From contig DASWEZ010000084.1 of the NCBI GenBank assembly GCA_036394495.1, forward strand, positions 1-40,803: a DNA stretch of 40,803 nucleotides. Direction: 5' to 3'. Position 1 is the first letter of the stretch. The number at the start of each line of letters is the position of its first letter. Below the pieces are notes generated by a model. The model saw only the letters and a program-made list of their open reading frames with translations. It was not told the origin of the DNA and searched no databases. The stretch comes from Burkholderiales bacterium (GTDB lineage Bacteria; Pseudomonadota; Gammaproteobacteria; Burkholderiales; JACQAP01). Positions 9,921-33,411 of this stretch are shown in pieces. The translations under genes and the position numbers were made by a program.

Positions 9921-10110
9921 ATCTCACCACGAAGGCACGAAGGACACGAAGTGGCACGAAGAAAAGCGAAGACAAGAAGGGAGGTTGGATCGGCTATGAC
10001 CATGCTTCCACGAACAAGAGATGCCGGCGGATCGGCCGTGCGACCCCCCATGTTCAATCTTGGTCTTGCCCTTCTTCGTGTTCCTTCGTGTCCTTCGTGT
10101 CTTCGTGGTG
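9921..10110. repeat. CACGAAGG-family hairpin element, copy 1
   Basis: Left arm atctcaccacgaaggcacgaaggacacgaagtggcacgaagaaa (9921-9964); right arm cttcttcgtgttccttcgtgtccttcgtgtcttcgtggtg (10071-10110); unique ~105-nt centre. Confidence 0.9.
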
Positions 10111-10159
10111 CGCATTTCGGTATGGTTTTTTAAGAATAATAAATAAGAGAGGGGAAGCG

Positions 10160-11215
10160 ATGGCCGCATCGACACGCTGGAAAAACAGGCCCGAGGGTTC
10201 GACCTGGGGCGATTTCGGTCCGGACGATCAACTCGGACGGCTGAACCTGCTGACCCCCGAGAAAGTGAAGCAGGGCATCGCCGAGGTGAAGGAGGGCCTG
10301 GTCTTCTGCCTGAGCCTGCCGCTGGATTATCCAGGCGGCAACCTGCTCAACCCGCGGCGCCATCCGCCGATCCTGCGCCCAACCTTGCGCAACGGCCGGC
10401 CGAACATGGTTTACGTCGTGCAGCGCGACAACCCGGACGCCACCGACGTCATCAACGACGACGCGGTGATCCTGCACCTGCAGTACTCGACGCAGTGGGA
10501 CAGCCTGGCGCACGTCGGCCAGTTGTTCGACGCCGACGGCGACGGCAAGCCGGAACCGGTGTTCTACAACGGCTATCGCGGCGGCAAGGAGATCTCCGGG
10601 CCGACCGATCCGGACGATGCCGGGGCCATCGGCAACGTGCCCGCGAAATCCACGACGGCGGTGCATGCGCTGGGCGTCGAGAACATGGCGGTGAACTGCG
10701 TGCAGGGCCGCGGCGTGATGATCGACCTGCATGCGCACGTCGGCCGCGCCGGCACGGCGGTCGGCTACGACCAGCTCATGCGCATCATCGAGAAGGACAA
10801 GGTCGTCGTCGAAAAAGGCGACATGGTCTGCCTGCACACCGGTTTCGCGCAGATGATCCTGGAAATGAACAAGCAGCCCGACCAGCACAAACTGGGAAAT
10901 TCCTGTGCGACGCTGGACGGGCGCGACAAGAAGCTGCTGCAGTGGATCACGGATTCCGGGCTGGTCTCGCTGATCGCGGACAACTACGCGGTGGAGGCGC
11001 ATCCGGCCACCAGCCACGACGGCTGCTGCGCGACATTGCCGCTGCATGAACACTGCCTGTTCAAGCTCGGCGTGAACCTCGGCGAGATCTGGCACCTGAC
11101 GCCACTCGCCAACTGGCTGCGCGAACACAAGCGTTCGCGTTTCCTGCTCACCGCGCCGCCGCTGCGCCTGCCCGGCGCGGTCGGCTCCCCCACCACACCC
11201 GTGGCAACCGTTTAA
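10160..11215 (+). CDS. Cyclase-family protein (PF04199-like; kynurenine formamidase / isatin hydrolase superfamily)
   Basis: Start trimmed to ATG 10160, preceded by an AT-rich stretch and GAGAGGGGAAG. 351 aa. The family-like motif LQYSTQWDSLAH occupies the place of the canonical HxGTHxDxPxH. Confidence 0.65.
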   Translation: MAASTRWKNRPEGSTWGDFGPDDQLGRLNLLTPEKVKQGIAEVKEGLVFCLSLPLDYPGGNLLNPRRHPPILRPTLRNGRPNMVYVVQRDNPDATDVINDDAVILHLQYSTQWDSLAHVGQLFDADGDGKPEPVFYNGYRGGKEISGPTDPDDAGAIGNVPAKSTTAVHALGVENMAVNCVQGRGVMIDLHAHVGRAGTAVGYDQLMRIIEKDKVVVEKGDMVCLHTGFAQMILEMNKQPDQHKLGNSCATLDGRDKKLLQWITDSGLVSLIADNYAVEAHPATSHDGCCATLPLHEHCLFKLGVNLGEIWHLTPLANWLREHKRSRFLLTAPPLRLPGAVGSPTTPVATV

Positions 11216-11237
11216 CCGACTGACCGAGGAGTTCGCC

Positions 11238-11999: not shown

Positions 12000-12045
12000 A
12001 GGCCGTGCCCGACTTCGCTGGATACCGGGCTTCGCCCATAAATGA

Positions 12046-12132
12046 CGTGAATATCGTGAATATCGTAAAAGGCGAAACCGACCGCATTTGGGCTTGGCAA
12101 GACTGCTCTTCACGACATTCACGGTATTCACG
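12046..12132. repeat. Hairpin element with GTGAATATC tandem-unit arms (same family as 2684-2790)
   Basis: Left arm cgtgaatatcgtgaatatcg (12046-12065); right arm cgacattcacggtattcacg (12113-12132); 18/20 complementary. Confidence 0.85.
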
Positions 12133-12147: not shown

Positions 12148-13284
12148 GTGAGCTACATCACCGGCGTCGGGCTGATGCCCTACGGCAAGCACCCGGGCAA
12201 GAACACGCTCGACCTGATGGGCGAGGCGGCCACGATGGCGCTTGCCGATGCGCAACTGGAGCGCGGCGACATCGACGGCCTGGTGTGCGGTTATTCGACG
12301 ACGATGCCGCACCTGATGTTGTCGACCGTATTCGCCGAACACTTCGGACTGAAGCCCGAATACGCGCATGCGATCCAGCTCGGCGGGGCGACCGGTTTCG
12401 CCATGGCGATGCTGGCGCATCACCTGGTCGAATCCGGCGTGGCGAAGAACATCCTGGTGGTGGCGGGCGAAAACCGGCTCACCGGGCAAAGCCGCGATTC
12501 CGCGATCCAGACGCTCGCCCAGGTCGGCCATCCGGTTTACGAAGTCCCGCTGGGCGCAACCATTCCCGCGTATTACGGCTTGCTTGCATCGCGCTACATG
12601 CTCGAATACGGCACGACGGAAACGGATTTCGCCGAGCTTGCCGTGCTGATGCGCAGGCACGCCAGCATGCATCCCGGCGCCCAGTTCAAGGAGCCCATCA
12701 CGGTCGATGCGGTGCTTGGCTCGAAACCGATCGCTTCGCCTTTGAAGCTGCTCGACTGTTGCCCGGTTTCCGACGGCGGGGCGGCCTTCGTGGTGAGCCG
12801 TGCACGTACCAACGACTTCAACGTGAAAATCCGCGGCACCGGCCAGGCGCATCCCTACCAGCACCTCAGTGCCGCACCCAGCCTCACACAATCGGGTGCC
12901 GCCCCCGCCATGGCGAAGGCGCTCGCGGCGGCGGGCGTGAAGGCTTCCGACGCGGACTACGCCGCCATCTACGACAGCTTCACCATCACGCTCACCATCC
13001 TGCTCGAGGAACTCGGTCTGGCGCCTCGCGGCGGCGCGGGAAAGCTCGCGCACGAGGGACATTTCAGCCACGACGGCAAGCTGCCGCTCAACACGCACGG
13101 TGGACTGCTCTCGTATGGCCATTGCGGCGTCGGCGGCGCGATGGCCCATCTCGTCGAGACGCACCGGCAACTGACGCAGCGCGCGGAGAACCGCCAAGCG
13201 AAGAATGCCAGTCTCGCGCTGCTGCACGGCGACGGCGGGGTGTTGTCGTCGCATGTATCGCTCGTGGTGGAGTCGGCGACATGA
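12148..13284 (+). CDS. Thiolase-like protein (SCP-x / DUF35-partnered type)
   Basis: Start trimmed to GTG 12148, because the longer ORF reads through the repeat. The N-terminus SYITGVGLMPYGKH fits the thiolase-like pattern. CCPVSDGGAAFVV and NTHGGLLSYGH motifs. Translationally coupled to the DUF35 gene. Confidence 0.8.
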   Translation: MSYITGVGLMPYGKHPGKNTLDLMGEAATMALADAQLERGDIDGLVCGYSTTMPHLMLSTVFAEHFGLKPEYAHAIQLGGATGFAMAMLAHHLVESGVAKNILVVAGENRLTGQSRDSAIQTLAQVGHPVYEVPLGATIPAYYGLLASRYMLEYGTTETDFAELAVLMRRHASMHPGAQFKEPITVDAVLGSKPIASPLKLLDCCPVSDGGAAFVVSRARTNDFNVKIRGTGQAHPYQHLSAAPSLTQSGAAPAMAKALAAAGVKASDADYAAIYDSFTITLTILLEELGLAPRGGAGKLAHEGHFSHDGKLPLNTHGGLLSYGHCGVGGAMAHLVETHRQLTQRAENRQAKNASLALLHGDGGVLSSHVSLVVESAT

Positions 13285-13901: not shown

Positions 13902-16013
13902 ATGAAAGATGTATTGCGCGAATCGCTGCGCACGGTATTGAACCCGAAGTCCGTCGCAGTCATCGGCGCTTCCGAGAATGAAAATAAAATCGGCGGCCGC
14001 CCGTTGCTTTATCTGTCCCGCCACGGCTTCAAGGGCAAGGTCTACCCGATTAATCCGAAGCGAGCGGAGATCCAGGGCTTCAAGGCCTACCCGTCGCTTG
14101 CCGATGTGCCCGACGCGCCTGAAGCGGCCATCGTCGCGCTGGCCGGCGACGCGGCCATCGAGGCGGTCGAGCAGTGCGCGAAGCGCGGGGTGAAAACCGC
14201 GGTGGTGATGACTTCGGGGTTCGGCGAGACCGATCCGGTCGGCGGCAAGGCCAAGGAAAAGCGCATGCGCGATGCGGCGCACGCGGCGGGGATGCGCATC
14301 GTCGGACCGAATTCCCAGGGGCTGGCCAATTTCGGCACCGGTGCGATCCTGTCGTTTTCGACCATGTACATCGAAGCGCCGCCGATGGACGGTCCGATCG
14401 CCGTGGTCAGTCAGTCCGGGGCAATGAGCGTGGTGCCCTACGGCTTGCTGCGTGCGCGCGGCCTCGGCGTGAGGCATTCGCATGCCACCGGCAACGATGC
14501 CGACGTGACCGTCTCCGAGCTGGCCTCGGTGGTCGCCGAAGACCCGGACCTGAAATTGCTGTTGCTCTATCTGGAAAGCATCAACGACCCGTTCTTTCTC
14601 GCCGAGACCGCGCGCATCGCCCACGAGCGCAACCTGCCGGTCATCGCGTTGAAATCCGGCCGCACCGCCGCCGGCCAGGAAGCGGCGAAGTCGCACACCG
14701 GGGCGCTGGCAAACGAGGACAGGACGGTCGACGCTTTCCTCGCCAAACACGGCATCTGGCGCGCACGCGACACCGCCGAACTGGTGGCCAGTGCGGAGAT
14801 GTACCTGAAAGGCTGGAAACCGAAGGGCCGCAGGCTGGTGGCGATCAGCAATTCCGGCGCGGTCTGCGTGATGGCAGCCGACGCCGCCAGCACGGTCGGC
14901 ATGCCGCTGGCCAGACTCGCAGAGGGAACGCGCGCGGAACTGGGCAAGATCCTGCCGGGCTTCGCAACGACCACCAATCCGATCGACATCACCGCGGCAC
15001 TGCTGACCAACAGCGGGCTGTTCTCGCAGATCCTGCCCGTGCTTGCGCGCGATTCCGCGGCCGATGCCTTCCTGATCGGCATTCCGGTCGCAGGACAGGG
15101 TTATGACGTCGAGGCCTTTGCCCGCGATTCCGCGGATTTCGCCAAGGCGACGGCCAAGCCGCTGGTCGCGGCGATTCCGCAACCCAATATCGCCGCGCGT
15201 TTCAAGGCGCATGACCTGCCGGTGTTTCCGACCGAATACGAAGCGGTTGCGGCCCTGAACCAGTTCCTGTCGCATGGGGAACTCATGCAGGCGTCGAAGG
15301 GCAGGTCGGCTGCCAGCACGCGCGCGCCGGCTGCGGCTGCAACGACTTCCGCGATGCTGAACGAGGCGGACAGCCTGAAGTTGCTGGCCGATGCCGGCGT
15401 ACCGGTCGTGAAGTTCAAACTATGCCGCAGCGCCGACGAAGCGGCAGCAGCGGCTGCGGAACTGTGCGGTCCGGTTGCGGTGAAAGGCTGCTCGGCCGAC
15501 GTCGTACACAAGAGCGAGCTCGGCCTGGTGCGCCTGGGCTTGAACGACGCTGACCAGGTACGCAAGGCATTCGCGGAAATCCAGCAGGCGCTGGCGAATC
15601 ATGGTGCCCGCTTCGACGGCGCCATCGTCGCGAAAATGGCTCGCGGGCGCCGCGAAATGATGATCGGCGCGCGCGTCGATCCGGTGTTCGGCCCGGTGGT
15701 ACTGGTCGGCGATGGCGGGAAATACGTCGAGGCAATGCCGGACGTGCAATTGCTGATTTCGCCTTTCACCGCGGCTGAAGTGAAGCAGGCCCTGGGACGC
15801 CTGCGCATTGCGCCGCTGCTCGCCGGCGTGCGCGGAGAGCCGGCGCTGGACGTGGAGGCATTCTGCGAGGCGGCGCTCGCCGTCTGCCGGCTGATGACGA
15901 ATCCGCAGTCCGGGGTGGTGAATCTGGATCTGAACCCGGTGCTGCTTGGCGGTAAAGGCGAGGGCTGCGTGGCGCTCGACGCGGTGGTCTATAGAAGAGT
16001 CGTGACGGCGTGA
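13902..16013 (+). CDS. ADP-forming acyl-CoA synthetase (acetate--CoA ligase [ADP-forming] family; CoA-binding, ligase-CoA and ATP-grasp domains)
   Basis: 703 aa. N-terminal SVAVIGASENENKIGG CoA-binding motif; central succinyl-CoA-synthetase-like region; C-terminal ATP-grasp (VAVKGCSADVVHKSELGLV). Confidence 0.85.
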   Translation: MKDVLRESLRTVLNPKSVAVIGASENENKIGGRPLLYLSRHGFKGKVYPINPKRAEIQGFKAYPSLADVPDAPEAAIVALAGDAAIEAVEQCAKRGVKTAVVMTSGFGETDPVGGKAKEKRMRDAAHAAGMRIVGPNSQGLANFGTGAILSFSTMYIEAPPMDGPIAVVSQSGAMSVVPYGLLRARGLGVRHSHATGNDADVTVSELASVVAEDPDLKLLLLYLESINDPFFLAETARIAHERNLPVIALKSGRTAAGQEAAKSHTGALANEDRTVDAFLAKHGIWRARDTAELVASAEMYLKGWKPKGRRLVAISNSGAVCVMAADAASTVGMPLARLAEGTRAELGKILPGFATTTNPIDITAALLTNSGLFSQILPVLARDSAADAFLIGIPVAGQGYDVEAFARDSADFAKATAKPLVAAIPQPNIAARFKAHDLPVFPTEYEAVAALNQFLSHGELMQASKGRSAASTRAPAAAATTSAMLNEADSLKLLADAGVPVVKFKLCRSADEAAAAAAELCGPVAVKGCSADVVHKSELGLVRLGLNDADQVRKAFAEIQQALANHGARFDGAIVAKMARGRREMMIGARVDPVFGPVVLVGDGGKYVEAMPDVQLLISPFTAAEVKQALGRLRIAPLLAGVRGEPALDVEAFCEAALAVCRLMTNPQSGVVNLDLNPVLLGGKGEGCVALDAVVYRRVVTA

Positions 16014-16153
16014 CGATCGTGACGACGTGACGAGGTAAGTTCAAGACCAAAACGCGACTCGCAATCGCGAGTTCGTCGCATCTGGCAATAGGCTTTTAGC
16101 GTCCCTCTGCACATACGTCGTCACGCCGTCACGTCGTCACGTTCGTCACGGCG
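16001..16153. repeat. Hairpin element with GTGACG tandem-unit arms (same family as 3180-3302)
   Basis: Left arm cgtgacggcgtgacgatcgtgacgacgtgacgagg (16001-16035) supplies the last codons and the TGA stop (16011-16013) of the synthetase gene. Right arm 16116-16153 consists of cgtcac units. Confidence 0.9.
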
Positions 16154-16307
16154 CTTCTTATTGACGAACGCCGCCATTTGCGCGAATGTTTGTGTATACG
16201 TGCGCACACGGTTGCGAGGTCTGTTCAAACCCGTGCACACAGGAAACAATTTGACACACCATCCCGGGTCGCGGCAGGTTGCCGCGGCAAAAAAGGAGCA
16301 AGTAGCT

Positions 16308-17210
16308 ATGATCCAGCCGACCCTGTTGCAAACGCATAGGAATTTTTCACTGATCCTGATCTGTGCGATGCTTGGCGCCTGCGCGACAACGCAGAGGGGC
16401 AGCACCGGATCGGGAGACCAGGCGGCGGCGCCGATTTCCGAGGCGGCAAATCCGCAAGATGCGGCGAAACCCGGAGAGACGCCGAGTTCGACCGCCGCCG
16501 GCGCGGCCGGCACTTCTGCGCCATCGAATTCCACCAAGCCCGCGGGTGCCGCTGGCGCGGCCGGCGCGAACGCAGGCACGAAACAAGGTTCGTCCGAAGG
16601 CACTCCCGCGAGCCGCGACAATGAAGAAGCGGCGCAACTCAAGCGCCAGCTCGCCGATCAGGACGCGCAGATCAACAAGCTGCGCACCGAACAGCAGGCG
16701 GAAGCCGACCGGGAGGAGACAGAGGCGGCGAAAATGCGGGAGCAGCAGGCCGCCGCCGGGGGCGTAAAAGACCAGCAGTCCGGCGCTTCCGCCGCTGCGT
16801 CCCAGGACGAAGCGGCAGTCTTTCCGGCCAATGCCAATACCGCGGAATCCGCGGGCGCCGGCAGCGAATCGGTGGTGCAACGCACGATCGAGCACAGCGT
16901 GTATTTCGGCTACGACCAGTACTCCGTGGCGGATGAATACGACGAAATGCTGCTGGCCAATGCCGCTTATCTGAAAGCCCATCCCGCGCTGAAAACGGAA
17001 GTGCAGGGCAATTGCGATGAACGCGGCAGCCGGGAATACAACCTCGCCCTCGGTGCTCGCCGGGCGCAGGCGGTCAAGCGGGCGCTGGAACTTGCCGGAG
17101 CGGACGGCGACCGCATCGTTGCCATCAGCTACGGTGCGGAGAAGCCGGTGGCCACCGGCAAGGATGAAGCGAGCTATAGCCAGAATCGCCGCGCGGACAT
17201 CGTTTACTGA
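16308..17210 (+). CDS. pal: Peptidoglycan-associated lipoprotein (Pal/OmpA family) with an unusually long Ala/Gln/Glu-rich linker
   Basis: Start ATG 16308 with AAGGAG at 16293-16298. Lipobox MLGAC. The C-terminal ~105 aa (VYFGYDQYSV...NCDERGSREYNLALGARRAQAV...NRRADIVY) are very close to E. coli Pal as I remember it. Confidence 0.85.
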   Translation: MIQPTLLQTHRNFSLILICAMLGACATTQRGSTGSGDQAAAPISEAANPQDAAKPGETPSSTAAGAAGTSAPSNSTKPAGAAGAAGANAGTKQGSSEGTPASRDNEEAAQLKRQLADQDAQINKLRTEQQAEADREETEAAKMREQQAAAGGVKDQQSGASAAASQDEAAVFPANANTAESAGAGSESVVQRTIEHSVYFGYDQYSVADEYDEMLLANAAYLKAHPALKTEVQGNCDERGSREYNLALGARRAQAVKRALELAGADGDRIVAISYGAEKPVATGKDEASYSQNRRADIVY

Positions 17211-17223
17211 ACAAGCTGCACCC

Positions 17224-18063
17224 ATGAGATTTTTTGTCGTTCCGGCGGGGATCATTCTGACCCTGGCCGGCTGCGCCACGCAGGACCAGTTGCGCCAGAA
17301 CGAGGCGCAACAGGGCCAGGCCGTGCAGGCATTGCGCGCAGATGCGAACCGGAGCGAAAGCGGACTCTCGGATCTGCGGGCGGAAATCCGGCGTACGCAG
17401 GACACGGTGCATGAGCTCGAAGTTGCGCTGACCGACGCGCGCGCCCGGACGGACGCGGCGAAGGTTCAGGCCGACAATGCGCTGGCGACTTCCCGGGAAT
17501 TCCTTGCCAACCTGATCGCGGCGCGGGAGGAGCAACGTCACCAGCTCGACCAGAACGGCGTTGTTTTTGCGGATCTCAGGCGCAAGCTCGCCGACCTGGA
17601 AACGCGGCTGCAGGCGCAGCAACGGATGCTGGAACAGAACGCATCCGTATTGAGCGATGGAACCCGGCGCCTGTATGCGGTCGAGGCCGGGCTGCAGGAG
17701 GTCGGCCGCCGCTCCACGCTGCTCGAAGCCAAGGCAAAAACAGCGCAGGAGACCGGCGATGGTCTGACCCGGCAACTCGCCGGCATGCGCAAACAGGTCG
17801 AGGACACCCGCGCGGCAATGGGTTCCGAAAGCCTGCTGCAGATGATGCGCGAACTGGAAGACATGCGGCGCAATTCCGCCTCGTTGCGCGGATCGATCGA
17901 TGAACTGCGCAAGGCGCAGGCGGATTCTGCCGCGCAGTCCAAAAATTATTACCTGGATCTGGATTCGCGGGTCCGGCAGCTGAAGCAGCCCGACCCGCCG
18001 CCGGTGCGCCAGATCGAATCGACTGCTCCGGTAGGGCCCGAGCCCGCGCCTGCCAGTCAGTGA
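17224..18063 (+). CDS. Coiled-coil lipoprotein with a CpoB/YbgF N-terminal-like segment and no TPR domain
   Basis: Start ATG 17224; lipobox LTLAGC. About 230 aa of heptad-like Q/E/R/A-rich sequence. The C-terminal ..SKNYYLDLDSRVRQL resembles the YbgF trimerisation motif (..DLYLDLDRRL..). Confidence 0.6.
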   Translation: MRFFVVPAGIILTLAGCATQDQLRQNEAQQGQAVQALRADANRSESGLSDLRAEIRRTQDTVHELEVALTDARARTDAAKVQADNALATSREFLANLIAAREEQRHQLDQNGVVFADLRRKLADLETRLQAQQRMLEQNASVLSDGTRRLYAVEAGLQEVGRRSTLLEAKAKTAQETGDGLTRQLAGMRKQVEDTRAAMGSESLLQMMRELEDMRRNSASLRGSIDELRKAQADSAAQSKNYYLDLDSRVRQLKQPDPPPVRQIESTAPVGPEPAPASQ

Positions 18064-18066
18064 CTT

Positions 18067-18171
18067 GCAGAGGGAAGAGACGAGAGGAAAGAGGAAAGAG
18101 GAAAGGAAGTACCTGGTTTCCCGTCTTTAACCTTTCTCTTTCCTCTCGCCTCTTTCCTCTTTCCTCTCTGC
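18067..18171. repeat. Hairpin element with GAGGAAA tandem-unit arms, between convergent genes
   Basis: Left arm gcagagggaagagacgagaggaaagaggaaagaggaaagg (18067-18106); right arm cctttctctttcctctcgcctctttcctctttcctctctgc (18131-18171); 24-nt loop. Confidence 0.9.
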
Positions 18172-18180
18172 GGGAGCGGT

Positions 18181-19140
18181 TTACCAGTTCCCGCTGGCCC
18201 CGCCACCCCCCGACCGTCCGCCCCCGCTGGAAAATCCACCGCCGCTCGAGAAGCCGCCGGAACTGCTGCTGCCGCCCGGACGGATGGTCATGCCGCCGAT
18301 CTGGGCGACGCCCTTGGTCTTCAGATCTTCGTGCGCCTTGAGATACCAGGGCATGCGGGAGATCACGATCCTGGCGATCGGGTAGAGCAGGGCATAGGTG
18401 CCGATGATGAACAGGGCGGCATGGCTGCCGAAGATCGCCATCGGAAACATCGACCAGAACGGGATCAGGAAGACATACATGAACCAGCCCATCCCGCCCG
18501 GGGTGACGAGGCCGATGAAGGTGAACAGCCCGATGATGCCGAACACGAACAGGCTGATGAGGATGCGCTCGGCCAACGGCATCGGCGCGGGTTCGACTTG
18601 GAAGCCGGCGCCAGGCTTGGCCGGCGCAGCCCATTCGGCATCGGGGGTCGTCGGCAGCCCGCCTTCCAGGACCTGGACCACCGCCGTGGCGCCGGCTTCG
18701 ACGCCGACGTCGTAATTGCCCTCGCGGAAGCGCGGCGTCATGAGATTGCGGATGATGCGGTCGGCAGCAACGTCGGTCAGCTTGTCTTCCAGGCCATAGC
18801 CGACCTCGATGCGCATGCGGTGTTCCTGCGGTGCAACGACGATCAGCACCCCATTGTCTTTTTCGCTGCTGCCCAGCTTCCAGGTTTCGAACACCCTCAC
18901 GGCGAAATCCTCGATGCTTTCCGCGCCGATGCCGTTGATGGTGAGGATCGCGATCTGGTTTCCGGAGGCCTGCTCGTGGGCCTGCAGCATGCTGTCGATG
19001 CGTTCGCGCGCCGGCGCGGTCAGGATCTCGGCCTGGTCGACGACGCGGCCGGAGAGATAGGGAACGGCAGCGTCGTCGGCTGCCGACAATCCGGCCCAGC
19101 CGAGCCAGAGCATCACCAGCACGTGTAGGGCGCGGTTCAT
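18181..19140 (-). CDS. TPM-domain protein (YgcG/COG1512-like) with a signal peptide, TM segments and a Gly/Ser-rich tail
   Basis: Real start ATG 19138-19140 (MNRALHVLVML..). Motifs GNQIAILTI, DNGVLIVVAPQEHRMRIEVGYGLE. C-terminal GGFSSGGGFSSGGG tail. Confidence 0.8.
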   Translation of the reverse strand: MNRALHVLVMLWLGWAGLSAADDAAVPYLSGRVVDQAEILTAPARERIDSMLQAHEQASGNQIAILTINGIGAESIEDFAVRVFETWKLGSSEKDNGVLIVVAPQEHRMRIEVGYGLEDKLTDVAADRIIRNLMTPRFREGNYDVGVEAGATAVVQVLEGGLPTTPDAEWAAPAKPGAGFQVEPAPMPLAERILISLFVFGIIGLFTFIGLVTPGGMGWFMYVFLIPFWSMFPMAIFGSHAALFIIGTYALLYPIARIVISRMPWYLKAHEDLKTKGVAQIGGMTIRPGGSSSSGGFSSGGGFSSGGGRSGGGGASGNW

Positions 19141-23916: not shown

Positions 23917-23930
23917 ACGGGGTGGGCACG

Positions 23931-24771: not shown

Positions 24772-24821
24772 TTAGTATTAGTTTGGTTTGTCGAAGCGGC
24801 CATCAATCCAGGAGATAACCC

Positions 24822-25256
24822 ATGAAAACGAACAATCTGCCGGCCATTCTGGCGACGTTACTGGCCGCGTTGCTGGCGTGCACCTTCGCCGCGCGTGCCG
24901 AGGATGCCATCAAGACCGTGTATCACCTGCCCGACGACCGGCTGGCAACGCTGGCGATGAACAACATTAACAACCACCTTAGCGCGGATCCGGGGGTGAA
25001 GATCGTCGTGGTGGCTTTGTCGACCGGCGTTCGCGCATTCACGTTCGGCGCGCAGGACGCCGGCGGCCGGCCTTACGCCGAGTGGGTCGACCAGCTCACC
25101 GCCAAAGGCGTGGAATTCCGCATTTGCCAGAACAGCATGAATGCGCTGAAGCTCACCAAAAAGGACTTGATCGACAAAGTCGAGGTCGTGCCTTCCGGCG
25201 TGGCGGAGATCGCGCGGTTGCAGGCCAGGGAAGGATATGTCTATATCCATCCATGA
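24822..25256 (+). CDS. DsrE/DsrF-like family protein (COG1416-like) with a signal peptide
   Basis: 144 aa with AGGAGA upstream. Signal peptide ..LLACTFAARA. Pattern ..KIVVVALSTGV.., ..VEFRICQNSM.. Confidence 0.6.
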   Translation: MKTNNLPAILATLLAALLACTFAARAEDAIKTVYHLPDDRLATLAMNNINNHLSADPGVKIVVVALSTGVRAFTFGAQDAGGRPYAEWVDQLTAKGVEFRICQNSMNALKLTKKDLIDKVEVVPSGVAEIARLQAREGYVYIHP

Positions 25257-25306
25257 GAGCGGGGTCGTAGAATTGCGGCTGATCATGGAAAACCGGGAAC
25301 GAGAAC

Positions 25307-26788
25307 ATGACTGCATCCACAGCTAGGAAGATCGTCGGGGAGACGGCAACGACTTACCAGAACCTGATCGGCGGCAAATGGCAGCCCGCTTCCGATGCCC
25401 GCACGGTCGACATGGTGAGCCCCAGCGACGGCCAGGCGTTCGCCAAAATCGCACGCGGTACCAAAGCGGATGTCGATGCGGCGGTCAAAGCCGCGCGCCA
25501 TGCCTTCGAGGAAGGCGCCTGGAGCAAGCTGACGGCCGTGGAGCGCGGCCGCCTGATGACCAGGCTCGGCGAGGCCATTCTCGCCAACCATGAAGAGCTT
25601 TCCCAGCTCGAAGCGAGGGATTGCGGCAAGCCGATGAAACAGGCGCGTGCCGATATCACCGCAGCGGCACGCTACTTCGAGTTCTATGGCGGCGCAGCCG
25701 ACAAGGTTCACGGCGATACCGTCCCGTTTCTCGACGGCTACATGGTGACTATCCTGCGCGAAGCGAAAGGCGTGACCGGCCACATCATCCCGTGGAATTA
25801 TCCGGCGCAGATGTTCGGCCGCAGCCTGGCGCCGGCACTGGCGATGGGTAACGCGGTAGTCATGAAACCGGCCGAAGATGCCTGCGTGACACCGGTACGC
25901 ATGGCGCAACTCGCGCAGGAAGTCGGCTTTCCGCCGGGCGCCCTGAACGTCGTCACCGGCATCGGCGAGGAAGCCGGCGCGGCGCTCGCCAGCCATCCCG
26001 GCATCGATTTCCTGTCTTTCACCGGTTCGCCGGAAGTCGGCACGCTGGTGCAGAAAGCGGCGGCCGAAAACCATATCGGCTGCACCCTGGAACTGGGCGG
26101 CAAGTCGCCACAGATCGTATTCGAGGATGCCGATTTCGATGCCGCGGTCCCGGTCGTGGTCAACGCCATCGTCCAGAACGGCGGCCAGACCTGCTCTGCG
26201 GGCAGCCGCGTGCTGGTGCAGAAATCCATCTACGAGAAATTCGTAGCACTGGTGGTCGCGCGCTTCAAGCTGTTGCGCGTGGGCAGCCACGCGATGGACC
26301 TGGATTGCGGTCCGCTGATCTCGGAGAACCAGAAGAGGCGCGTGCACGGTTTTATCGATCGCGCGAAGAAGGACGGCATCCCGGTGCTCGCCGAAGCGCA
26401 GATCGCCGATGGCGCGCCGTCCGGCGGCTTCTACGTCGCGCCGGTCCTGTTTGGGCCCGTACCCCGGAACAACTCGCTGGCCTGCGACGAAGTGTTCGGT
26501 CCGGTGTTGTCCATCATCCCCTTCGAGGACGAAGCGGATGCCGTGAAGCTCGCCAATTCGACCGAGTTCGGGCTGGTAGCCGGCATCTGGACGCGTGACG
26601 GCGCGCGCCAGATGCGGGTGGCGAAGAAGATGCGCTGCGGCCAGGTTTTCGTGAACGGTTACGGCGCGGGAGGCGGCATCGAACTGCCCTTCGGCGGCGT
26701 GAAGAAAAGCGGCCACGGCAGGGAAAAAGGCCTCGAGGCGTTGCACGAGTTTTCGCACACCAAGACCATCGTGTTCAAGCACGGATGA
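25307..26788 (+). CDS. NAD(P)+-dependent aldehyde dehydrogenase
   Basis: 493 aa. Catalytic motifs ELGGKSP and GQTCSAGSR; EEVFGPV-like DEVFGPV. Confidence 0.9.
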   Translation: MTASTARKIVGETATTYQNLIGGKWQPASDARTVDMVSPSDGQAFAKIARGTKADVDAAVKAARHAFEEGAWSKLTAVERGRLMTRLGEAILANHEELSQLEARDCGKPMKQARADITAAARYFEFYGGAADKVHGDTVPFLDGYMVTILREAKGVTGHIIPWNYPAQMFGRSLAPALAMGNAVVMKPAEDACVTPVRMAQLAQEVGFPPGALNVVTGIGEEAGAALASHPGIDFLSFTGSPEVGTLVQKAAAENHIGCTLELGGKSPQIVFEDADFDAAVPVVVNAIVQNGGQTCSAGSRVLVQKSIYEKFVALVVARFKLLRVGSHAMDLDCGPLISENQKRRVHGFIDRAKKDGIPVLAEAQIADGAPSGGFYVAPVLFGPVPRNNSLACDEVFGPVLSIIPFEDEADAVKLANSTEFGLVAGIWTRDGARQMRVAKKMRCGQVFVNGYGAGGGIELPFGGVKKSGHGREKGLEALHEFSHTKTIVFKHG

Positions 26789-26816
26789 GGACTACGCCGA
26801 AACCTTTTTGGTCTAA

Positions 26817-27007
26817 ATCTCACCACGAAGGCACGAAGGACACGAAGGTTCACGAAGAAAAACTTAGGTGTGAAGGAATTTCGCTTCTGCGCAACTTTCG
26901 TCGCATCTCCGTGTATCGCGGATGTCTATCACCGACCGTTGTCACCCTTCCGTTCTTTTGCATTTCTTCGTGCCACTTCGTGTCCTTCGTGCCTTCGTGG
27001 TGAGAAT
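26817..27007. repeat. CACGAAGG-family hairpin element, copy 2
   Basis: Left arm 26817-26860; right arm 26963-27007. The reverse complement of the right arm matches the left arm of copy 1 at about 43/44 positions. The centre is unrelated to copy 1. Confidence 0.9.
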
Positions 27008-27102
27008 TTGACCAGGCTTTCGGGTTATAAGCAGCCTATTGGGTATATTGGCGGCCTGCTGATCGTGGCAGGCCGTTGTGTTATTTACCGAAGGAGAAGT
27101 CG

Positions 27103-28329
27103 TTGCACCTGATTCGCCCATTTACCGGTTTACGGCCCGCACCAGGCCGCGCCGCCGAGGTTGCCGCGCCGCCTTACGACGTCCTTTCTACCGAAGAAGC
27201 ACGTGTCCGCGCCGCCGGCAAGCCGTGGAGCTTTCTGCATATCTCCAAACCGGAGATCGACCTTCCTCCGGGCACCGATCCTTACGCGCCCCAGGTCTAT
27301 GCAAAGGCCGCGGAAAACCTCCAGCGCATACTTGCGCAAAAGGTGCTGGAGCGCGACCCGAAGCCCTGCTATTACGCCTACCGGCTGATCATGGATGGTC
27401 AAGCGCAGACTGGCGTGGTGGCGGCAGCCTCGGTGGCGGAATACGACAGCAACCGCATCCGCAAACATGAGTTCACCCGGCCGGACAAGGAGGACGATCG
27501 CGTCCGCCAGATCGAAGCGCTGAACGCGCAGACCGGGCCGGTTCTGCTGGCTTACCCGAATGCGCCGGATGTGGACGCCTTGCTTGCGCAGGTCGCGAAA
27601 GGCGAGCCTGTCGCGGATGTAACGGCGGATACCGGGGTGCGTCACAGCCTGTGGCGCATCGAAGATGCACAGTTGCAGGACAGGCTTACGCAGGCCTTTG
27701 ATGCGATGCCGGCCCTGTATATCGCCGACGGCCATCACCGCTCCGCTGCCGCGTCACGGGTCGCCGCATCACGGCGTGCTTCCGGAACGGAAAGTTGTAA
27801 CTTTTTTCTTGCTGTCGCGTTTCCGTATCATCAGATGCGCATCCTGCCTTACAACCGCGTAGTCACCGACCTGAACGGACTCAGCCGGCAGGAATTTCTG
27901 TCCAAAGTCGGCCAGAGTTTTGCGCTGCATGCCGCATCGAACGCCGTAACGCCGGCGAAACCGGGTGAATTCGGCCTGTATCTGATGGCCCAATGGTACC
28001 GGTTGAACATCCATCCCTCGCTGGTGCCGATGAACGACCCGGTCCAGCGCCTCGATGTCAGCCTGCTCGCCGACCGCCTGTTGGCGCCTTTGCTCGGCAT
28101 CACCGACCCCAGGCGCGACAAGCGCATCGATTTCATCGGGGGCATCCGTGGCCTGGCGGAACTGGAGAAGCGGGTCGACAGCGGCGCAATGGCGGCGGCG
28201 TTTTCGATGTTTCCGACCCGCATGGAAGACCTGATGGCAGTCGCGGATGTCGGCGAAGTCATGCCGCCGAAGTCGACCTGGTTCGAGCCCAAACTGGCCG
28301 ATGGACTGGTTTCGCATGTTCTGGATTAG
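27103..28329 (+). CDS. DUF1015 domain protein
   Basis: Likely TTG start at 27103, 7 nt after AAGGAGA. LIRPFTGLRP..APPYDV and ..YIADGHHR motifs characteristic of DUF1015. Confidence 0.75.
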   Translation: MHLIRPFTGLRPAPGRAAEVAAPPYDVLSTEEARVRAAGKPWSFLHISKPEIDLPPGTDPYAPQVYAKAAENLQRILAQKVLERDPKPCYYAYRLIMDGQAQTGVVAAASVAEYDSNRIRKHEFTRPDKEDDRVRQIEALNAQTGPVLLAYPNAPDVDALLAQVAKGEPVADVTADTGVRHSLWRIEDAQLQDRLTQAFDAMPALYIADGHHRSAAASRVAASRRASGTESCNFFLAVAFPYHQMRILPYNRVVTDLNGLSRQEFLSKVGQSFALHAASNAVTPAKPGEFGLYLMAQWYRLNIHPSLVPMNDPVQRLDVSLLADRLLAPLLGITDPRRDKRIDFIGGIRGLAELEKRVDSGAMAAAFSMFPTRMEDLMAVADVGEVMPPKSTWFEPKLADGLVSHVLD

Positions 28330-28473
28330 TACAGGACTGTAACTACCGGGTTACAACGAGTTACACTATGCATCTGGGCAGCCAAGAACCCGCTTTTCGA
28401 ATGAGTTCCGAGCCGATCGGATCGGGCGGGCAATAAAAATTCGCAGGCAACCGCCCAGCCGGAGGAGCACTTT

Positions 28474-30282
28474 TTGAAGCCCACCGATATTGCTGAACCC
28501 GCCTATTTCCACAAGGTCGTGGATTGTCAGTGGGCGTGTCCCGCCCACACCCCCGTTCCGGAATACATCAGGATGATCGCCGCAGGACGTCACGGCGACG
28601 CCTACATGGTCAACTGGAACTCCAACGTCTTCCCCGGCATTCTCGGCCGCACCTGCGATCGTCCCTGCGAACCGGCCTGCCGGCGCGGACGGGTCGAGGA
28701 GCACAATCAGGCCAAGCCCGAGCCGGTCGCGATCTGCCGCCTCAAGCGCGTCGCCGCCGACAACAAGGGCGACATCCGCTCCCGATTGCCGAGAGCCCCC
28801 TCAAGCAAGAACGGCAAGCGCGTGGCCTGTATCGGCGGCGGGCCTGCATCGCTGACTGTGGCGCGCGATCTGGCGCCGCTCGGTTACGAAGTCGTGATCT
28901 TCGACCAGGACCCCAAGGCCGGCGGCATGATCCGCACGCAGATTCCGCGTTTCCGCCTTCCCGAAGAGGTGATCGACGAAGAAGTCGGCTACGTGATCGA
29001 CATCGGCGTCGAATTCCGCGGCGGCGTGCGCATCGACAGCATGAAGAAGCTGCTGTCCCAGGGGTTCGATGCGGTCTTCGTCGGCTCGGGCGCGCCGCGC
29101 GGCCGCGACCTGGACCTTCCAGGCCGCAAGGAAGCGGCGAAGAACATCCACATCGGCATCGACTGGCTGTCGTCGGTGTCTTTCGGTCACGTCGAAAAGA
29201 TCGGCAAGCGCGTGATCGTGCTCGGCGGCGGCAACACGGCGATGGACTGTTGCCGTACATCCCGGCGCCTGGGAGGCGACGACGTCAAAGTCATCGTGCG
29301 CAGCGGTTTCGACGAAATGAAGGCCAGCCCCTGGGAGAAGGAGGATGCGGCGCATGAAGGCATCCCGATCCTGAACTTCCTGGTGCCGAAGGCCTTCGAA
29401 CACCGCAATGGCAAGCTCACGGGCATGACCTTCGAAAAGGTCAAGGCGGTGTTCGACGACAAAGGGCGCCGCAAACTGGTGCCCACTGGCGAACCGGATC
29501 AGCGCTTCGACTGCGACGATGTGCTGGTTGCCGTCGGCCAGGAGAACTCGTTCCCGTGGATCGAACGCGACGCCGGCATCGACTTCGACCAATCCGGCAT
29601 GCCGGTCGTCGACAAGGTCACCTTCCAATCCTCGAACCAGAACGTGTTCTTCGGCGGCGACGCGGCATTCGGCCCGAAGAACATCATCTGGGCGGTCGCC
29701 CATGGCCACGACGCGGCGATCTCGATCGACAAATTCTGCAACGGCGAGGACGTGCGCGTGCGGCCCGGACCGCTGGTGAACCTCGTCAGCCAGAAGATGG
29801 GCATTCACGAGTGGAGCTACGACAACGATGTTTCGGGAGATCTGCGCCACAAGGTGCCGCTCAAGGACCAGGCGATCGCGCTGAAGAGCATCAAGGTCGA
29901 GGTCGAACTCGGCTTCGACGCGAAGCTGGCTTTTTCCGAAGCGCAGCGCTGCCTGAACTGCGACGTGCAGACGGTTTTCTCGCCGCCGCTTTGCATCGAA
30001 TGCGACGCCTGCGTTGACATCTGTCCGATGGATTGCATCACCTTTACCGCCAACGGCGAGGAAAACGATTTGCGCGGCCGGCTCAACGCGCCCGCCAAAG
30101 AGTTGTCACAGGATTTGTATGTATCCGACCTGCTCAAGACCGGCCGCATCATGGCCAAGGACGAGGACGTCTGCCTGCATTGCGGGCTGTGCGCCGAGCG
30201 TTGTCCGACCGGCGCCTGGGACATGCGCAAATTCCTTCTGAACGTCACGCACGCGGGACCGGCATGTCGCAGCCAAAAATAA
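28474..30282 (+). CDS. GltD-like NAD(P)H-dependent flavoprotein fused to a 2x[4Fe-4S] ferredoxin domain (KorC-like electron-transfer subunit)
   Basis: TTG start at 28474 after GGAGGAG. N-terminal Cys cluster (CQWACPAHTP...CDRPCEPAC); two dinucleotide folds (VACIGGGPAS; VIVLGGGNTAMD); C-terminal CIECDACVDICP and CLHCGLCAERCP. Confidence 0.8.
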   Translation: MKPTDIAEPAYFHKVVDCQWACPAHTPVPEYIRMIAAGRHGDAYMVNWNSNVFPGILGRTCDRPCEPACRRGRVEEHNQAKPEPVAICRLKRVAADNKGDIRSRLPRAPSSKNGKRVACIGGGPASLTVARDLAPLGYEVVIFDQDPKAGGMIRTQIPRFRLPEEVIDEEVGYVIDIGVEFRGGVRIDSMKKLLSQGFDAVFVGSGAPRGRDLDLPGRKEAAKNIHIGIDWLSSVSFGHVEKIGKRVIVLGGGNTAMDCCRTSRRLGGDDVKVIVRSGFDEMKASPWEKEDAAHEGIPILNFLVPKAFEHRNGKLTGMTFEKVKAVFDDKGRRKLVPTGEPDQRFDCDDVLVAVGQENSFPWIERDAGIDFDQSGMPVVDKVTFQSSNQNVFFGGDAAFGPKNIIWAVAHGHDAAISIDKFCNGEDVRVRPGPLVNLVSQKMGIHEWSYDNDVSGDLRHKVPLKDQAIALKSIKVEVELGFDAKLAFSEAQRCLNCDVQTVFSPPLCIECDACVDICPMDCITFTANGEENDLRGRLNAPAKELSQDLYVSDLLKTGRIMAKDEDVCLHCGLCAERCPTGAWDMRKFLLNVTHAGPACRSQK

Positions 30283-32096
30283 ACGACTTCGTCGTCAAGT
30301 TCGCGAATGTCAACGGCTCGGGTTCGGCCTCGGCCAACCAGTTGTTCGCGAAAGCCATCCTGCGCATGGGCGTGCCGGTCAGCCCGCGCAATATCTTTCC
30401 GTCCAACATCCAGGGCCTGCCGACCTGGTACGAAGTGCGGGTTTCGGAGGCGGGCTATCTCGGCGCGCGCGGCGGCGTCGACCTGATGGTGGCGATGAAT
30501 CCGCAGACCTGGGACAAGGATGTGCTCGGCATCGATCCGGGCGGCTATCTGTTTTACGACTCGACCAAGCCGCTGCCGAAATCGAAATTCCGCGAGGACG
30601 TGCGCGTCATCGGGGTGCCGCTCACGGAGATCGGCAACCGCGAGTATTCCGATCCGCGCCAGCGCCAGCTGTTCCGCAACATCATTTATGTGGGTGCCCT
30701 GGCGGCGCTGCTGGACATGGACATTGCCGAGATCGAAAAGCTGATCGGCGAGCAATTCGAGGGCAAGGACAAACTGATAGCGCCGAACATCCGTGCGCTG
30801 CATCTGGGGCGCGACTATGCGAAGGCGCATTTCGAGTGCCCGATCGGCCTGAGCGTGCGCCGCGCCTCCGCCGTCGGCGACAGCATTTTCATCGACGGCA
30901 ACACGGCCGCCGCACTGGGCTGCGTGTACGGCGGCGCGACGGTCGCGGCGTGGTATCCGATCACGCCGTCGTCGAGCCTGGCGGAAGCGTTCGCGCGGCA
31001 TTGCAGGACTTATCGCAAGGATGAGTCCGGCAACAATCGCTATGCGGTGATCCAGGCCGAGGACGAACTTGCATCGATCGGCATGGTGATCGGCGCCAGC
31101 TGGAACGGCGCACGCGCCTTCACCTGCACCTCCGGCCCCGGCATCTCGCTGATGCAGGAGTTCATCGGGCTGGCCTACTTCGCCGAAATTCCCGCGGTGA
31201 TTTTCGACGTGCAGCGCGGCGGGCCTTCGACCGGCATGCCGACCCGCACGCAGCAGGCCGACGTGCTGGCGTGCGCCTATGCCTCGCACGGCGATACCAA
31301 GCATGTGCTGCTGTTTCCCGAAGACCCGGCGGAAAGTTTCGATTTCGCAGCCGATGCATTCGACATCGCCGAACGCCTGCAGACGCCGGTGTTCGTCATG
31401 CTGGATCTGGACATCGGCATGAACGACCGCCTGAGCCGGCCGCTTGCCTGGGATGACGCGCGCCGCTACGACCGCGGCAAGGTCGCGACCTTCGACGCGC
31501 TGGAGTCCGGCAAGGAATTCGGCCGCTATCTGGACGTCGACGGCGACGGCATTACCTACCGGACCTATCCCGGCACGCACCCTTCGCGCGGCGCGTTCTT
31601 CACGCGCGGCACCACCAAAGACCGGTACGCGCGCTACAGCGAGGCCGGGCCCGACTACATGGACAACATGCAGCGGCTGCTGCGCAAGTTCGAGACGGCC
31701 AAAGACTTGTTGCCGAAACCCGAGGTCCGGCCGGCATTGCAACCGAGCCGGCTTGGGGTGCTCTACTACGGTTCGACCAGCCCGGCAATGTACGAGGCGC
31801 TCGATAGCCTCGAGCAGCAGGGCATCCATTTCGACGCAATGCGCGTGCGCGCTTTCCCTTTCCACGATCAGGTCGAGGATTTCATCGCCGGGCACGACCA
31901 CGTGTTCGTGGTCGAGCAGAACCGCGATGCGCAGCTGCGCATGCTGCTGGTCAACGAATGCGGCGTCGATCCCGCCAAACTCACGCCGGTGCTGCACTAC
32001 GATGGCACGCCGATCACGGCGCGTTTCATCGTCAAGGAAATCGCCGAGGACGCGAAGGCCCTGAAAGTCACTCCCATGCGCAAGGTGGCTCCATGA
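30264..32096 (+). CDS. korA: 2-oxoacid:acceptor oxidoreductase alpha subunit (gamma-alpha fusion type)
   Basis: ATG 30264 lies 19 nt inside the preceding gene. 610 aa. N-terminus ..VKFANVNGSGSASANQLFAKAI.. (gamma-like), then ..AAWYPITPSS.. (alpha). Confidence 0.85.
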   Translation: MSQPKINDFVVKFANVNGSGSASANQLFAKAILRMGVPVSPRNIFPSNIQGLPTWYEVRVSEAGYLGARGGVDLMVAMNPQTWDKDVLGIDPGGYLFYDSTKPLPKSKFREDVRVIGVPLTEIGNREYSDPRQRQLFRNIIYVGALAALLDMDIAEIEKLIGEQFEGKDKLIAPNIRALHLGRDYAKAHFECPIGLSVRRASAVGDSIFIDGNTAAALGCVYGGATVAAWYPITPSSSLAEAFARHCRTYRKDESGNNRYAVIQAEDELASIGMVIGASWNGARAFTCTSGPGISLMQEFIGLAYFAEIPAVIFDVQRGGPSTGMPTRTQQADVLACAYASHGDTKHVLLFPEDPAESFDFAADAFDIAERLQTPVFVMLDLDIGMNDRLSRPLAWDDARRYDRGKVATFDALESGKEFGRYLDVDGDGITYRTYPGTHPSRGAFFTRGTTKDRYARYSEAGPDYMDNMQRLLRKFETAKDLLPKPEVRPALQPSRLGVLYYGSTSPAMYEALDSLEQQGIHFDAMRVRAFPFHDQVEDFIAGHDHVFVVEQNRDAQLRMLLVNECGVDPAKLTPVLHYDGTPITARFIVKEIAEDAKALKVTPMRKVAP

Positions 32097-33148
32097 CCTA
32101 CATCACCAAACCGAAACTCCATCATCCGCAACTGCCCGCCAATAAACTGGGCTTTACGCGGCGCGACTACGAAGGCGCGATTTCCACGCTCTGCGCCGGC
32201 TGCGGCCACGATTCGATCAGCGCCGCGATCATCCAGGCCTGCTTCGAACTCGACCTGCCGCCGCATCGCATCGCCAAGTTGTCCGGCATCGGTTGCTCAT
32301 CGAAGACGCCGACCTATTTCCTCAGCAGTTCGCACGGATTCAACAGCGTGCACGGACGCATGCCCTCGGTGCTGACCGGTGCCAACCTGGCCAACCGCGA
32401 ACTGATTTACCTGGGGGTATCGGGCGACGGCGATTCCGCGTCGATCGGGCTGGGCCAGTTTGCGCACAGCGTCCGGCGCGGCGTGAACATGGTCTATATC
32501 GTCGAGAACAACGGCGTGTACGGGCTGACCAAAGGCCAGTTCTCGGCGACTTCGGACCGCGGTTCGAAGAGCAAGAAGGGCGCGACCAACACCGACGCCG
32601 CCATCGACATGGTCCTGCTCGCGATGGAGCTGGGCGCAACTTACGTGGCGCGCAGCTTCTCCGGCGACAAAGCGCAACTGGTGCCGCTGATCAAAGGCGC
32701 GATCCTGCACCGCGGCGCGGCGTTCATCGATTGCATCTCGCCCTGCGTGGCTTTCAACAACCACGCCGGTTCGACCAAGAGTTTCGACTACGTGCGCGAG
32801 CACAACGAAGCCGTCAACCAGCTCGACGTGATGCTGCCGCGCGAGCCGATCACGGCGGACTATGCGCCGGGCGCCGTCGAGGAAATCACCCAGCACGACG
32901 GTTCGGTGCTGAAACTGCGCAAGCTTGCCGCCGAATACGACGTACACGACCGCATCGCCGCGATGAACTACCTGCAGGAACGCAAGGCGGCGGGGGAGAT
33001 CGTGACCGGCGTGCTGCACGTCGATCCGGATCCGGAAGACCTGCATGCGCATCTCGGCACCGTCGAGTCGCCGTTCAACAAGCTCGGCGAGAAGGAGCTC
33101 TGTCCTGGCAGCGTTTCACTGGATCAATTCAACGCCGCGCATCGTTAG
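32093..33148 (+). CDS. korB: 2-oxoacid:acceptor oxidoreductase beta subunit (TPP-binding)
   Basis: ATG 32093 overlaps the korA stop (ATGA). 351 aa. CAGCGH, GIGCSS and GDGD..IG motifs. Confidence 0.85.
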   Translation: MTYITKPKLHHPQLPANKLGFTRRDYEGAISTLCAGCGHDSISAAIIQACFELDLPPHRIAKLSGIGCSSKTPTYFLSSSHGFNSVHGRMPSVLTGANLANRELIYLGVSGDGDSASIGLGQFAHSVRRGVNMVYIVENNGVYGLTKGQFSATSDRGSKSKKGATNTDAAIDMVLLAMELGATYVARSFSGDKAQLVPLIKGAILHRGAAFIDCISPCVAFNNHAGSTKSFDYVREHNEAVNQLDVMLPREPITADYAPGAVEEITQHDGSVLKLRKLAAEYDVHDRIAAMNYLQERKAAGEIVTGVLHVDPDPEDLHAHLGTVESPFNKLGEKELCPGSVSLDQFNAAHR

Positions 33149-33176
33149 TCCGGCTGAATGATTCCTAAGGCACGAA

Positions 33177-33411
33177 ATTCTCACCACGCGCCGCAAGCGG
33201 CACACACCCCTGCGGGTGCATATGAGTGTTCCCTTGAGGCACGAAGGACACGAAGTTGCACGAAGAAGGGCAAGATCGGCATGGCATTGCATGGCATTGT
33301 GTTGTATATAGTTATTTGACCATGGCTGACGCGCTATCGTGGCGATGTGCAGACGCGGAATGACTCTCCCCCGGTCTTCTTCGTGTTCCTTCGTGTCCTT
33401 CGTGGTGAGAT
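33177..33411. repeat. CACGAAGG-family hairpin element, copy 3, with a 48-nt insertion in its left arm
   Basis: The left arm is split: attctcaccacg (33177-33188) and aggcacgaaggacacgaagttgcacgaagaaggg (33237-33270). Right arm 33376-33411. The insertion at 33189-33236 carries two mini-hairpins. Confidence 0.85.

Follow-up and report, generated by a model that had tools for sequence, protein, structure and literature searches.

Facing arrays of short tandem words have been described in Geobacter metallireducens, where paired tandem octanucleotides form 'global regulator binding sites' of classes 1-3 (Aklujkar et al. 2009, PMC2700814), and in Xanthomonas, where arrays of the GGGAATC heptamer occur as inverted pairs (Rehm et al. 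2015, PMC4692102). Here we analyse three elements of comparable build, each about 195-240 bp long, in a 40,803-nt contig of a Burkholderiales bacterium (DASWEZ010000084.1), the whole of which we call the window. In each element two inverted arrays of the octamer CACGAAGG enclose a short centre. We suggest that these three copies are probably gene-less, non-autonomous members of a hairpin-type selfish family, the fuller form of which carries a gene for a GxxExxY nuclease. This class of element is described in the literature only in fragments, those from Geobacter and Xanthomonas, and a pairing of word arms with a nuclease gene was not found in the literature searched.

The window is contig C84 of a soil metagenome-assembled genome (G000 below; 2.96 Mb in 314 contigs, 61% G+C, 80% complete), which was compared with 36 other species of its genus, 37 species in all. 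Three findings carry the suggestion. Each arm consists of 3-4 CACGAAGG units in a fixed polarity: in 58 pairs of G000 the purine-rich array precedes its partner on either strand, and the order is reversed in one. The same arms and ends surround a 131-aa GxxExxY gene in a congener (L050) and in two metagenome contigs (L225 and L228). The orthologous positions of copies 1, 2 and 3 (sites 1, 2 and 3) are filled in some congeners and empty in others. The first-pass annotation had proposed a non-autonomous mobile element, and about 59 element pairs in the assembly, arm-motif counts from 0 to 79 in the 37 species, the filled and empty sites and the gene-bearing relatives all speak for it.

Arms, copy number and orthologous sites

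At its outer end every arm has a terminal clamp, which reads (A)AATCTCACCACG or, as a variant, GCGCACCACG. Behind the clamp stand CACGAAGG octamers, three or four in tandem, and a variable 3-nt spacer precedes the innermost of them. Copy 1 (9919..10117, 199 nt) is composed of a left arm at 9919-9964, a centre at 9965-10071 and a right arm at 10072-10117, which ends in the clamp variant GCGCACCACG. Copy 2 (26815..27009, 195 nt) has its left arm at 26815-26860, its centre at 26861-26962 and its right arm at 26963-27009, and its palindromy reaches outward to 26809-27014 (TGGTC/GACCA). Copy 3 (33176..33413, 238 nt) opens with the terminal clamp AATTCTCACCACG at 33176-33188, which is separated by a nested insert (33189-33236) from the word array at 33237-33267; the centre (33268-33376) and the right arm (33377-33413) follow. 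The near-identity of the inverted arms, noticed already from the letters of the window, holds: the left arm of copy 1 (9921-9964) agrees at 43/44 positions with the reverse-complemented right arm of copy 2, and at 41/44 with the left arm of copy 2. The 16-mer CACGAAGGNCACGAAG occurs 6 times in the window, while 0.2 occurrences are expected from shuffles. As single strands, copies 1, 2 and 3 fold into stems of about 45 bp with energies of -105, -107.7 and -102.9 kcal/mol (z-scores of -9.5, -13.1 and -4.9 against shuffles), and in copy 3 the 48-nt insert branches off sideways where clamp and word array meet. Rfam gives 0 matches in the window at gathering score.

Arm BLAST together with a scan for unit clusters finds 48-59 paired elements in G000 (about 59 by the widest count), mostly 176-260 nt long, so that the arms are present in the assembly far beyond the three sites of the window. 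In its terminal inverted repeats, small size, lack of coding capacity and many copies, the family resembles MITEs (miniature inverted-repeat transposable elements). The number of arm motifs is 79 in G000 and 0-39 in the 36 congeners, and none of the 16 other families of the order sampled yielded a stricter pattern of three units per arm. The flanks of the elements often extend the palindrome or repeat the clamp in tandem, and several copies show tandem duplications of clamp plus flank. One long copy departs from this size, a 496-nt CACGAAGG element (contig C100, 9810-10305) with a 410-nt centre, in which several small GC hairpins are seen and a check for open reading frames found none convincing; this centre may hold another nested repeat.

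In four soil runs from three studies, public contigs agree with the window at 99% or more over 14000-33900 and end inside the arms, for example at 26839 and 26982. Among the public runs listed as containing this DNA, none is of RNA. They were rejected as alleles of the window loci: the joints consist of the same arms with other short centres and sides of at most 38 nt, and hence belong to other copies or other organisms. Short-read assemblies of such genomes fragment because contigs end in the arms, and young copies may therefore be absent from the assembly.

Orthologous spacers of the three sites were fetched from the congeners, up to 24 per site. Site 1 is filled by a CACGAAGG element in G000, in G004 (with another centre) and in G018 (with a 32-nt centre), and G020 has a half element there. 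In 7 congeners it is a spacer of 23-38 nt with a ribosome-binding site only and no element. In G010 and G021 the spacer is longer and has the flanks common to the filled sites, also with no element. Since short and long spacer classes exist side by side, the history of this site is no simple single insertion. Site 2 lacks an element in at least 5 congeners, has a CACGAAGG element in about seven species and in other species has elements of mixed or other words (CACGGAGG, CACCAAGG). Site 3 has a CACGAAGG element in G000 only; elsewhere solo or paired arrays of unrelated words are found, and in G004 there is a 64-nt spacer with no element. The empty sites in relatives, one of the checks proposed for the arms, thus exist at all three positions. 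At each of them the direction of change, gain or loss, is one that we infer.

The spacer after the gene of the thiamine pyrophosphate (TPP) enzyme beta subunit, at window 33149-33170 and in the orthologous spacers (L089-L111), carries arrays of quite different words in most congeners, among them GTGATTG, GTGAACRG, GTGACG and GGACTGAG. It is a hot spot for word arrays.

Gene-bearing relatives and the GxxExxY protein

The statement of the first-pass annotation that no transposase is present in the window is true; however, a candidate protein partner exists elsewhere, and it is no classical transposase but a GxxExxY protein of the PD-(D/E)XK nuclease type. GxxExxY genes are present in 29 of the 37 genomes, and inverted word arrays flank nearly all of the 29 genes inspected. 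Three of these genes lie between arms of the CACGAAG type. L050 (species G051, about 550 bp) has clamp and array as in the window copies, with CACGAAGG arms and CTCACCACG ends, and L051 (G050) and L060 (G006) have shorter CACGAAG arrays around the gene. The product of L050 (P0001), read from a TTG start, is the protein of 131 aa, which matches TIGR04256 (E 1e-42) and PF13366 (E 3e-42).

Protein searches give thousands of GxxExxY homologues. Two from metagenomes, L225 (80% identity, after valS) and L228 (67% identity, between dctM and dctP), lie within CACGAAGG arms with CTCACCACG or GCGCACCACG ends, and both types of end also occur in the window. Two more homologues (76% and 72%) lie within rearranged clusters of CACGAAGG arms. 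The protein lineage spans 67-99% identity with arms nearly unchanged. Strong constraint acts on the arms, and they outlast the protein, being almost the same where the latter has fallen to 67% identity.

G000 itself has two GxxExxY genes, one of them between inverted CGCAAAGG arrays. The other is situated at a contig start, and only its downstream array, of CTTGGCG words, is visible. Broken genes also occur: an internal TAG is found in C243 of G000, and fragments in several congeners. The G+C content of GxxExxY genes is about 49%. Searches of G000, which is 80% complete, found neither a Y1 (RAYT) transposase gene (PF01797) nor a PF05635 gene. We did not meet such ends shared with an insertion sequence of known transposase; the PD-(D/E)XK nuclease gene is the only gene found between them.

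The catalytic residues D76, E86 and K88 and the G-x-x-E-x-x-Y motif are invariant in 35 sequences. The AlphaFold2 model of the protein (mean predicted local distance difference test score, pLDDT, 88.9) has fold matches to PD-(D/E)XK proteins only (Cas4, lambda-exonuclease-like, Hjc), which are weak, with E of 0.02 or more. A more specific PD-(D/E)XK subfamily assignment was dropped, as these matches are too weak for it, and no solved-structure relatives were found by sequence. The protein is predicted to be a minimal PD-(D/E)XK nuclease. PF13366 is given as of function unknown in a survey of PD-(D/E)XK proteins (PMC3424549), and no functional study of GxxExxY, PF13366 or TIGR04256 was found in the literature. 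In the tree of the 29 genus proteins L050, L051 and L035 form a clade with support of 95/94, which unites two CACGAAG-armed genes and one CACCAAG-armed gene.

In at least 9 species a GxxExxY gene occupies one conserved site, directly upstream of a gene that starts with ATGGCTGATTACAA (loci L037-L039, L042-L044, L061, L062 and L001). The arm word at this site varies among the species by transitions (CGCAGAGG, CGCAAAGG, CGCAAAGA), and some arrays are mixed, which suggests that words may change in place.

The CACGAAGG family is accompanied in the window and in the genome by sister families of the same architecture, built from words such as CGCAAAGG, CACAGAGG, CACGGAGG, GTGACGNC, GTGAATRTC and GAGGAAA, and inverted array pairs of many words number at least 139 in G000. 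Six hairpins of other words are located in the window (2681-2799, 12034-12132, 3179-3303, 16006-16153, 18069-18167 and 22932-23124), with words including CGTGAATAT, CGTGACG, GAGGAAAGA and CGCAAAGGA. A scan for an exact 28-nt array finds it in more than 113 contigs from at least 10 phyla, with Acidobacteriota, Chloroflexota, Planctomycetota, Geobacteraceae, Entotheonella and Aminicenantes among the taxa. The loops beyond the genus are 6 to about 490 nt long, some arrays are solo, and the usual outer end is ATC instead of CTCAC; one of these loops holds a C-terminal fragment of a GxxExxY gene. We do not accept this distribution as proof of horizontal transfer, because the word space (CRCRRAGG) is small and coincidence among many word arrays is inseparable from transfer.

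Nested inserts, centres and possible movement

The nested insertion seen in the left arm of copy 3 is real and exactly 48 nt long (33189-33236), between CTCACCACG and AGG-CACGAAGG, but it is no one-off event. It is the long form, on the plus strand, of a recurrent mini-insert with a family of its own, in which a 14-nt GC hairpin (33189-33202) is followed by the 14-nt core CAAGTGTTCCCTTG. In copy 3 this core is split by a further insert of 20 nt at about 33205-33224; the inner 20-mer is exact in 6 copies, and a seventh (in C291) has one mismatch. The mini-insert module occurs 43 times in G000, always between CTCACCACG and AGG-CACGAAGG and often in both arms of one element. The core is also found inside hairpins of the GAGAGGG, CCTCTTTCC and GTGAATGTC families of G000 and in congeners with few or no CACGAAGG elements (29 times in G021, 49 in G052 and 8 in G022), and in G017 it stands in the opposite orientation in one arm. 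Outside the genus it was found, 3 times, in one of 118 genomes, which represent 84 other genera of the order. Its recurrence, its other hairpin hosts and its narrow range therefore indicate that the mini-insert is a separate small repeat which lodges in hairpins.

A bare hairpin on the minus strand of contig C98 of G000 (about 12600-12670) consists of the CTCACCACG clamp and a palindromic mini-insert, the 14-nt core lying at the tip. It has neither CACGAAGG units nor a centre and gives the impression of an element that has collapsed. Another type of mini-insert, with the core GGGTACTCC...GAGGGTAT, breaks CACGAAGG arms directly after CACGAA at L074 (site 2 of G018), at L060 (G006) and in C258 of G000 (about 5700-5745).

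The centres of copies 1-3 had been described as unrelated, and for these three this stands. Of the 1711 pairs among 59 centres of G000, 19 align at E<1e-3, and none of the three pairs of the window copies is among them. In the wider family the description fails in part, since the aligning pairs are homologous at 65-81% identity, in either orientation, and shuffles give none. Some centres do recur elsewhere, while the rest of the pairs do not align at this cut-off. Examples of homologous centres are C274 5484 / 6644, C106 / C183 / C45 and C35 6872 / 18733 (inverted). Pairs of 33-nt arm cores in G000 are 79% identical in the median, with differences mostly in register shifts and spacer letters, and the centres have a median of 54% vs 49% for shuffles. 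Between G000 and G020 at site 2 the right arm is 95.6% identical and the centre 69.5% (shuffles 49.7 +/- 2.7), so that the copy 2 centre can be recognised as the orthologue of the G020 centre.

The centres are about 100 nt long and non-coding, with 46% G+C in a genome of 61%. They resemble fast-decaying filler, and the term 'variable cargo' that had been applied to them is not borne out. We suggest that their low alignability, their fast divergence and the lack of a gene remnant mark them as unconstrained, fast-changing element DNA rather than captured cargo. Integron attC sites, an idea that came from the conserved inverted ends and variable middles, were rejected by eye because the ends consist of tandem words, and no search for an integrase was made.

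Alternatively, each copy could be the decayed remnant of a separate gene-bearing insertion, and the gene-less copies would then never have moved. The centres are indeed near the GxxExxY genes in G+C (46% and about 49%) and unlike the genome, broken genes exist, such as that in C243 and the fragments in several congeners, and the range of loops in other phyla, from 6 to about 490 nt, would fit this origin. However, a search of the 59 centres with the 29 genus GxxExxY proteins (tblastn) gives a best E of 0.02, a six-frame search with a hidden Markov model built from these proteins gives a best E of 3 vs 1.7 for shuffled centres, neither search exceeds its shuffled controls, and a DNA comparison of the centres with gene-bearing elements gives nothing. 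The lengths cluster at 190-210 nt, which is a better fit to copying of a short master than to random deletion, and about 59 gene-less copies face at most two genes in G000. We consider this origin improbable.

Arm-directed recombination, named in the first-pass annotation beside mobility, would keep the arms alike by gene conversion, and the centres would be swapped or overwritten via the arms. One hint of it survives at site 2, where the non-coding flank aligns between G000 and G006 at 70.6% and the centres are random to each other (52.5% vs 49.0 +/- 2.4). The stems bear on this in two directions. In 43 elements the variable letters that separate unit 2 from unit 3 are the same in both arms more often than by chance, as conversion would have it, and the frequent presence of the mini-insert in both arms of one element points the same way. 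However, on either side of the innermost unit, in the 3-nt spacer ahead of it and the 3 nt behind it, the arms match less often than by chance, and conversion between arms would erase such differences. The typical mismatch is TGG in one arm and GAA in the other, so that the stem has two regular bubbles of mismatches. When orthologous centres of other species were compared with all G000 centres, no replaced centre could be assigned a donor, at a BLAST setting that missed the G000-G020 pair too. Few centres are common to several copies in G000, and the same arms exist in distant lineages, beyond the reach of conversion between copies. Such concerted evolution is highly improbable as the explanation of the family.

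The gene context is one argument for a role in the host. Elements lie typically 15-70 nt after a stop codon, and where both neighbours are called, 19 elements stand between co-directional, 10 between convergent and 1 between divergent genes, that is, almost never in divergent promoter regions. The window copies all lie between same-direction protein-coding genes: copy 1 follows the gene of an ABC ATPase (8985-9893, +) and precedes that of a cyclase-family protein (10160-11215, +), copy 2 stands after the gene of an aldehyde dehydrogenase (25307-26788, +) and ahead of a DUF1015 gene (27076-28329, +), and copy 3 is preceded by a TPP-enzyme (2-oxoacid oxidoreductase beta-like) gene, the end of which is at 33148, and followed by the gene of a PhyH dioxygenase (33451-34212, +). 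A structure like the repetitive extragenic palindromes (REPs) might serve the host here as protector of mRNA 3' ends, RNase III site, terminator or array for a nucleoid protein of the integration host factor (IHF)/HU type, as proposed for the paired octanucleotides of Geobacter metallireducens (PMC2700814). The hairpins are very stable, and their arms are kept at orthologous sites while the centres decay, which resembles purifying selection. Nevertheless, we find a host role rather unlikely. Sister species lack an element at the same sites while their flanking genes are intact, and the count of arm motifs runs from 0 to 79 within one genus. The composition is low in G+C and foreign-like, and the family has a link to a nuclease gene lying in a hairpin loop. 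The RNA fold energy is better for the sense strand in 19 elements and for the antisense strand in 20 (p=0.18); this lack of bias speaks against an RNA role tied to one strand and is compatible with a role at the DNA level or one independent of orientation, and it is proof of neither.

Hence, we favour the selfish hairpin family with a nuclease-bearing fuller form. In this family the arms would be the functional ends: arrays recognised by the nuclease, a stem needed for movement or persistence, or both, which would explain why they are nearly constant. We infer that the nuclease acts on the arms and that gene-less copies would be mobilised in trans. The loop of about 100 nt would have no function, and it would drift, shrink or get replaced until it no longer aligns. 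The elements would be tolerated directly after stop codons, often within operons. The 48-nt interruption of copy 3 would represent the second, smaller repeat family, which is either an add-on module or itself parasitic on the selfish element. A further step we propose only tentatively: the CACGAAGG arrays may be the cognate sites of one GxxExxY lineage, and the whole may form an undescribed mobile class free of classical transposases, with the window copies as its non-autonomous derivatives and a 14-nt-core hyperparasite. In such a class the extruded hairpin might be cut in a structure-specific way and inserted behind stop codons at the tips of hairpins, and the two obligatory 3-nt mismatch bubbles may either belong to the signal that is recognised or protect the stem from palindrome-directed cleavage.

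Several observations weigh against this reading. No direct repeat that would mark a target-site duplication is present at the flanks of 48 copies or in the comparison of filled and empty site 1, so that the alignment of flanks, which gave the empty sites, did not give this second sign of insertion. In the cleanest filled/empty pair, G004 vs G010 at site 1, the insert is bounded by a short inverted repeat. No two centres of G000 are more than 81% alike, and there is thus no direct sign of recent copying. A CACGAAGG-armed GxxExxY gene was not found in G000, the assembly being 80% complete. G050 has a gene-bearing copy and one arm motif only; therefore, gene presence and copy number do not track simply. 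The clade with support of 95/94 may reflect common descent as much as specificity of the protein for its word.

Relation to known repeat systems

The paired octanucleotides of Geobacter metallireducens are similar to the elements described here in having two facing arrays of 4-5 tandem words of 7-8 nt on opposite strands at a variable distance, and in their dozens of intergenic copies, some of them between genes of one pathway. Unlike here, the words are GTTGCTYN and others, and the authors read them as sites of the IHF/HU type; a link to a gene in the loop and an analysis of presence and absence are not reported in that paper (PMC2700814). The GGGAATC arrays of Xanthomonas share the convergent pairs of short words, the mostly intergenic position near the end of the upstream gene and the placement mostly between genes of the same direction. 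However, they are G-rich heptamers that were studied for quadruplexes, with no terminal clamp and no associated gene reported (PMC4692102).

If our suggestion is true, a sizeable share of the intergenic DNA of this lineage, and of many phyla, would be made by a repeat system with an uncharacterised enzyme. The CACGAAGG family is a good entry point to such a system, as it offers a defined protein lineage, many gene-less copies, filled and empty sites and a nested second-order repeat. It also advises caution against taking operon hairpins of this kind for dedicated regulatory devices.

The intervening sequences (IVSs) of 23S rRNA are comparable in their long stem with a small open reading frame or filler in the loop, in their place at the tip of a pre-existing structure and in being present or absent among relatives. 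The small open reading frames of these IVSs belong to a four-helix-bundle family. The elements of the window differ from IVSs in that they lie between protein-coding genes, none of the three in rRNA.

Parallels in population structure are MITEs and the REP doublets (REPINs) that accompany REP-associated tyrosine transposase (RAYT) genes. In both, many short gene-less hairpins exist beside rare copies around one small gene, and copy number swings widely between relatives. In contrast to REPINs, the arms here are tandem words and no REP palindromes, and the Y1 transposase was not found in G000. In contrast to MITEs and their insertion sequences, the partner is a predicted PD-(D/E)XK nuclease and no DDE or Y1 transposase, and no target-site duplication is seen. 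By this analogy, the copies of the window would relate to the gene-bearing form as MITEs relate to insertion sequences and REPINs to RAYT genes.

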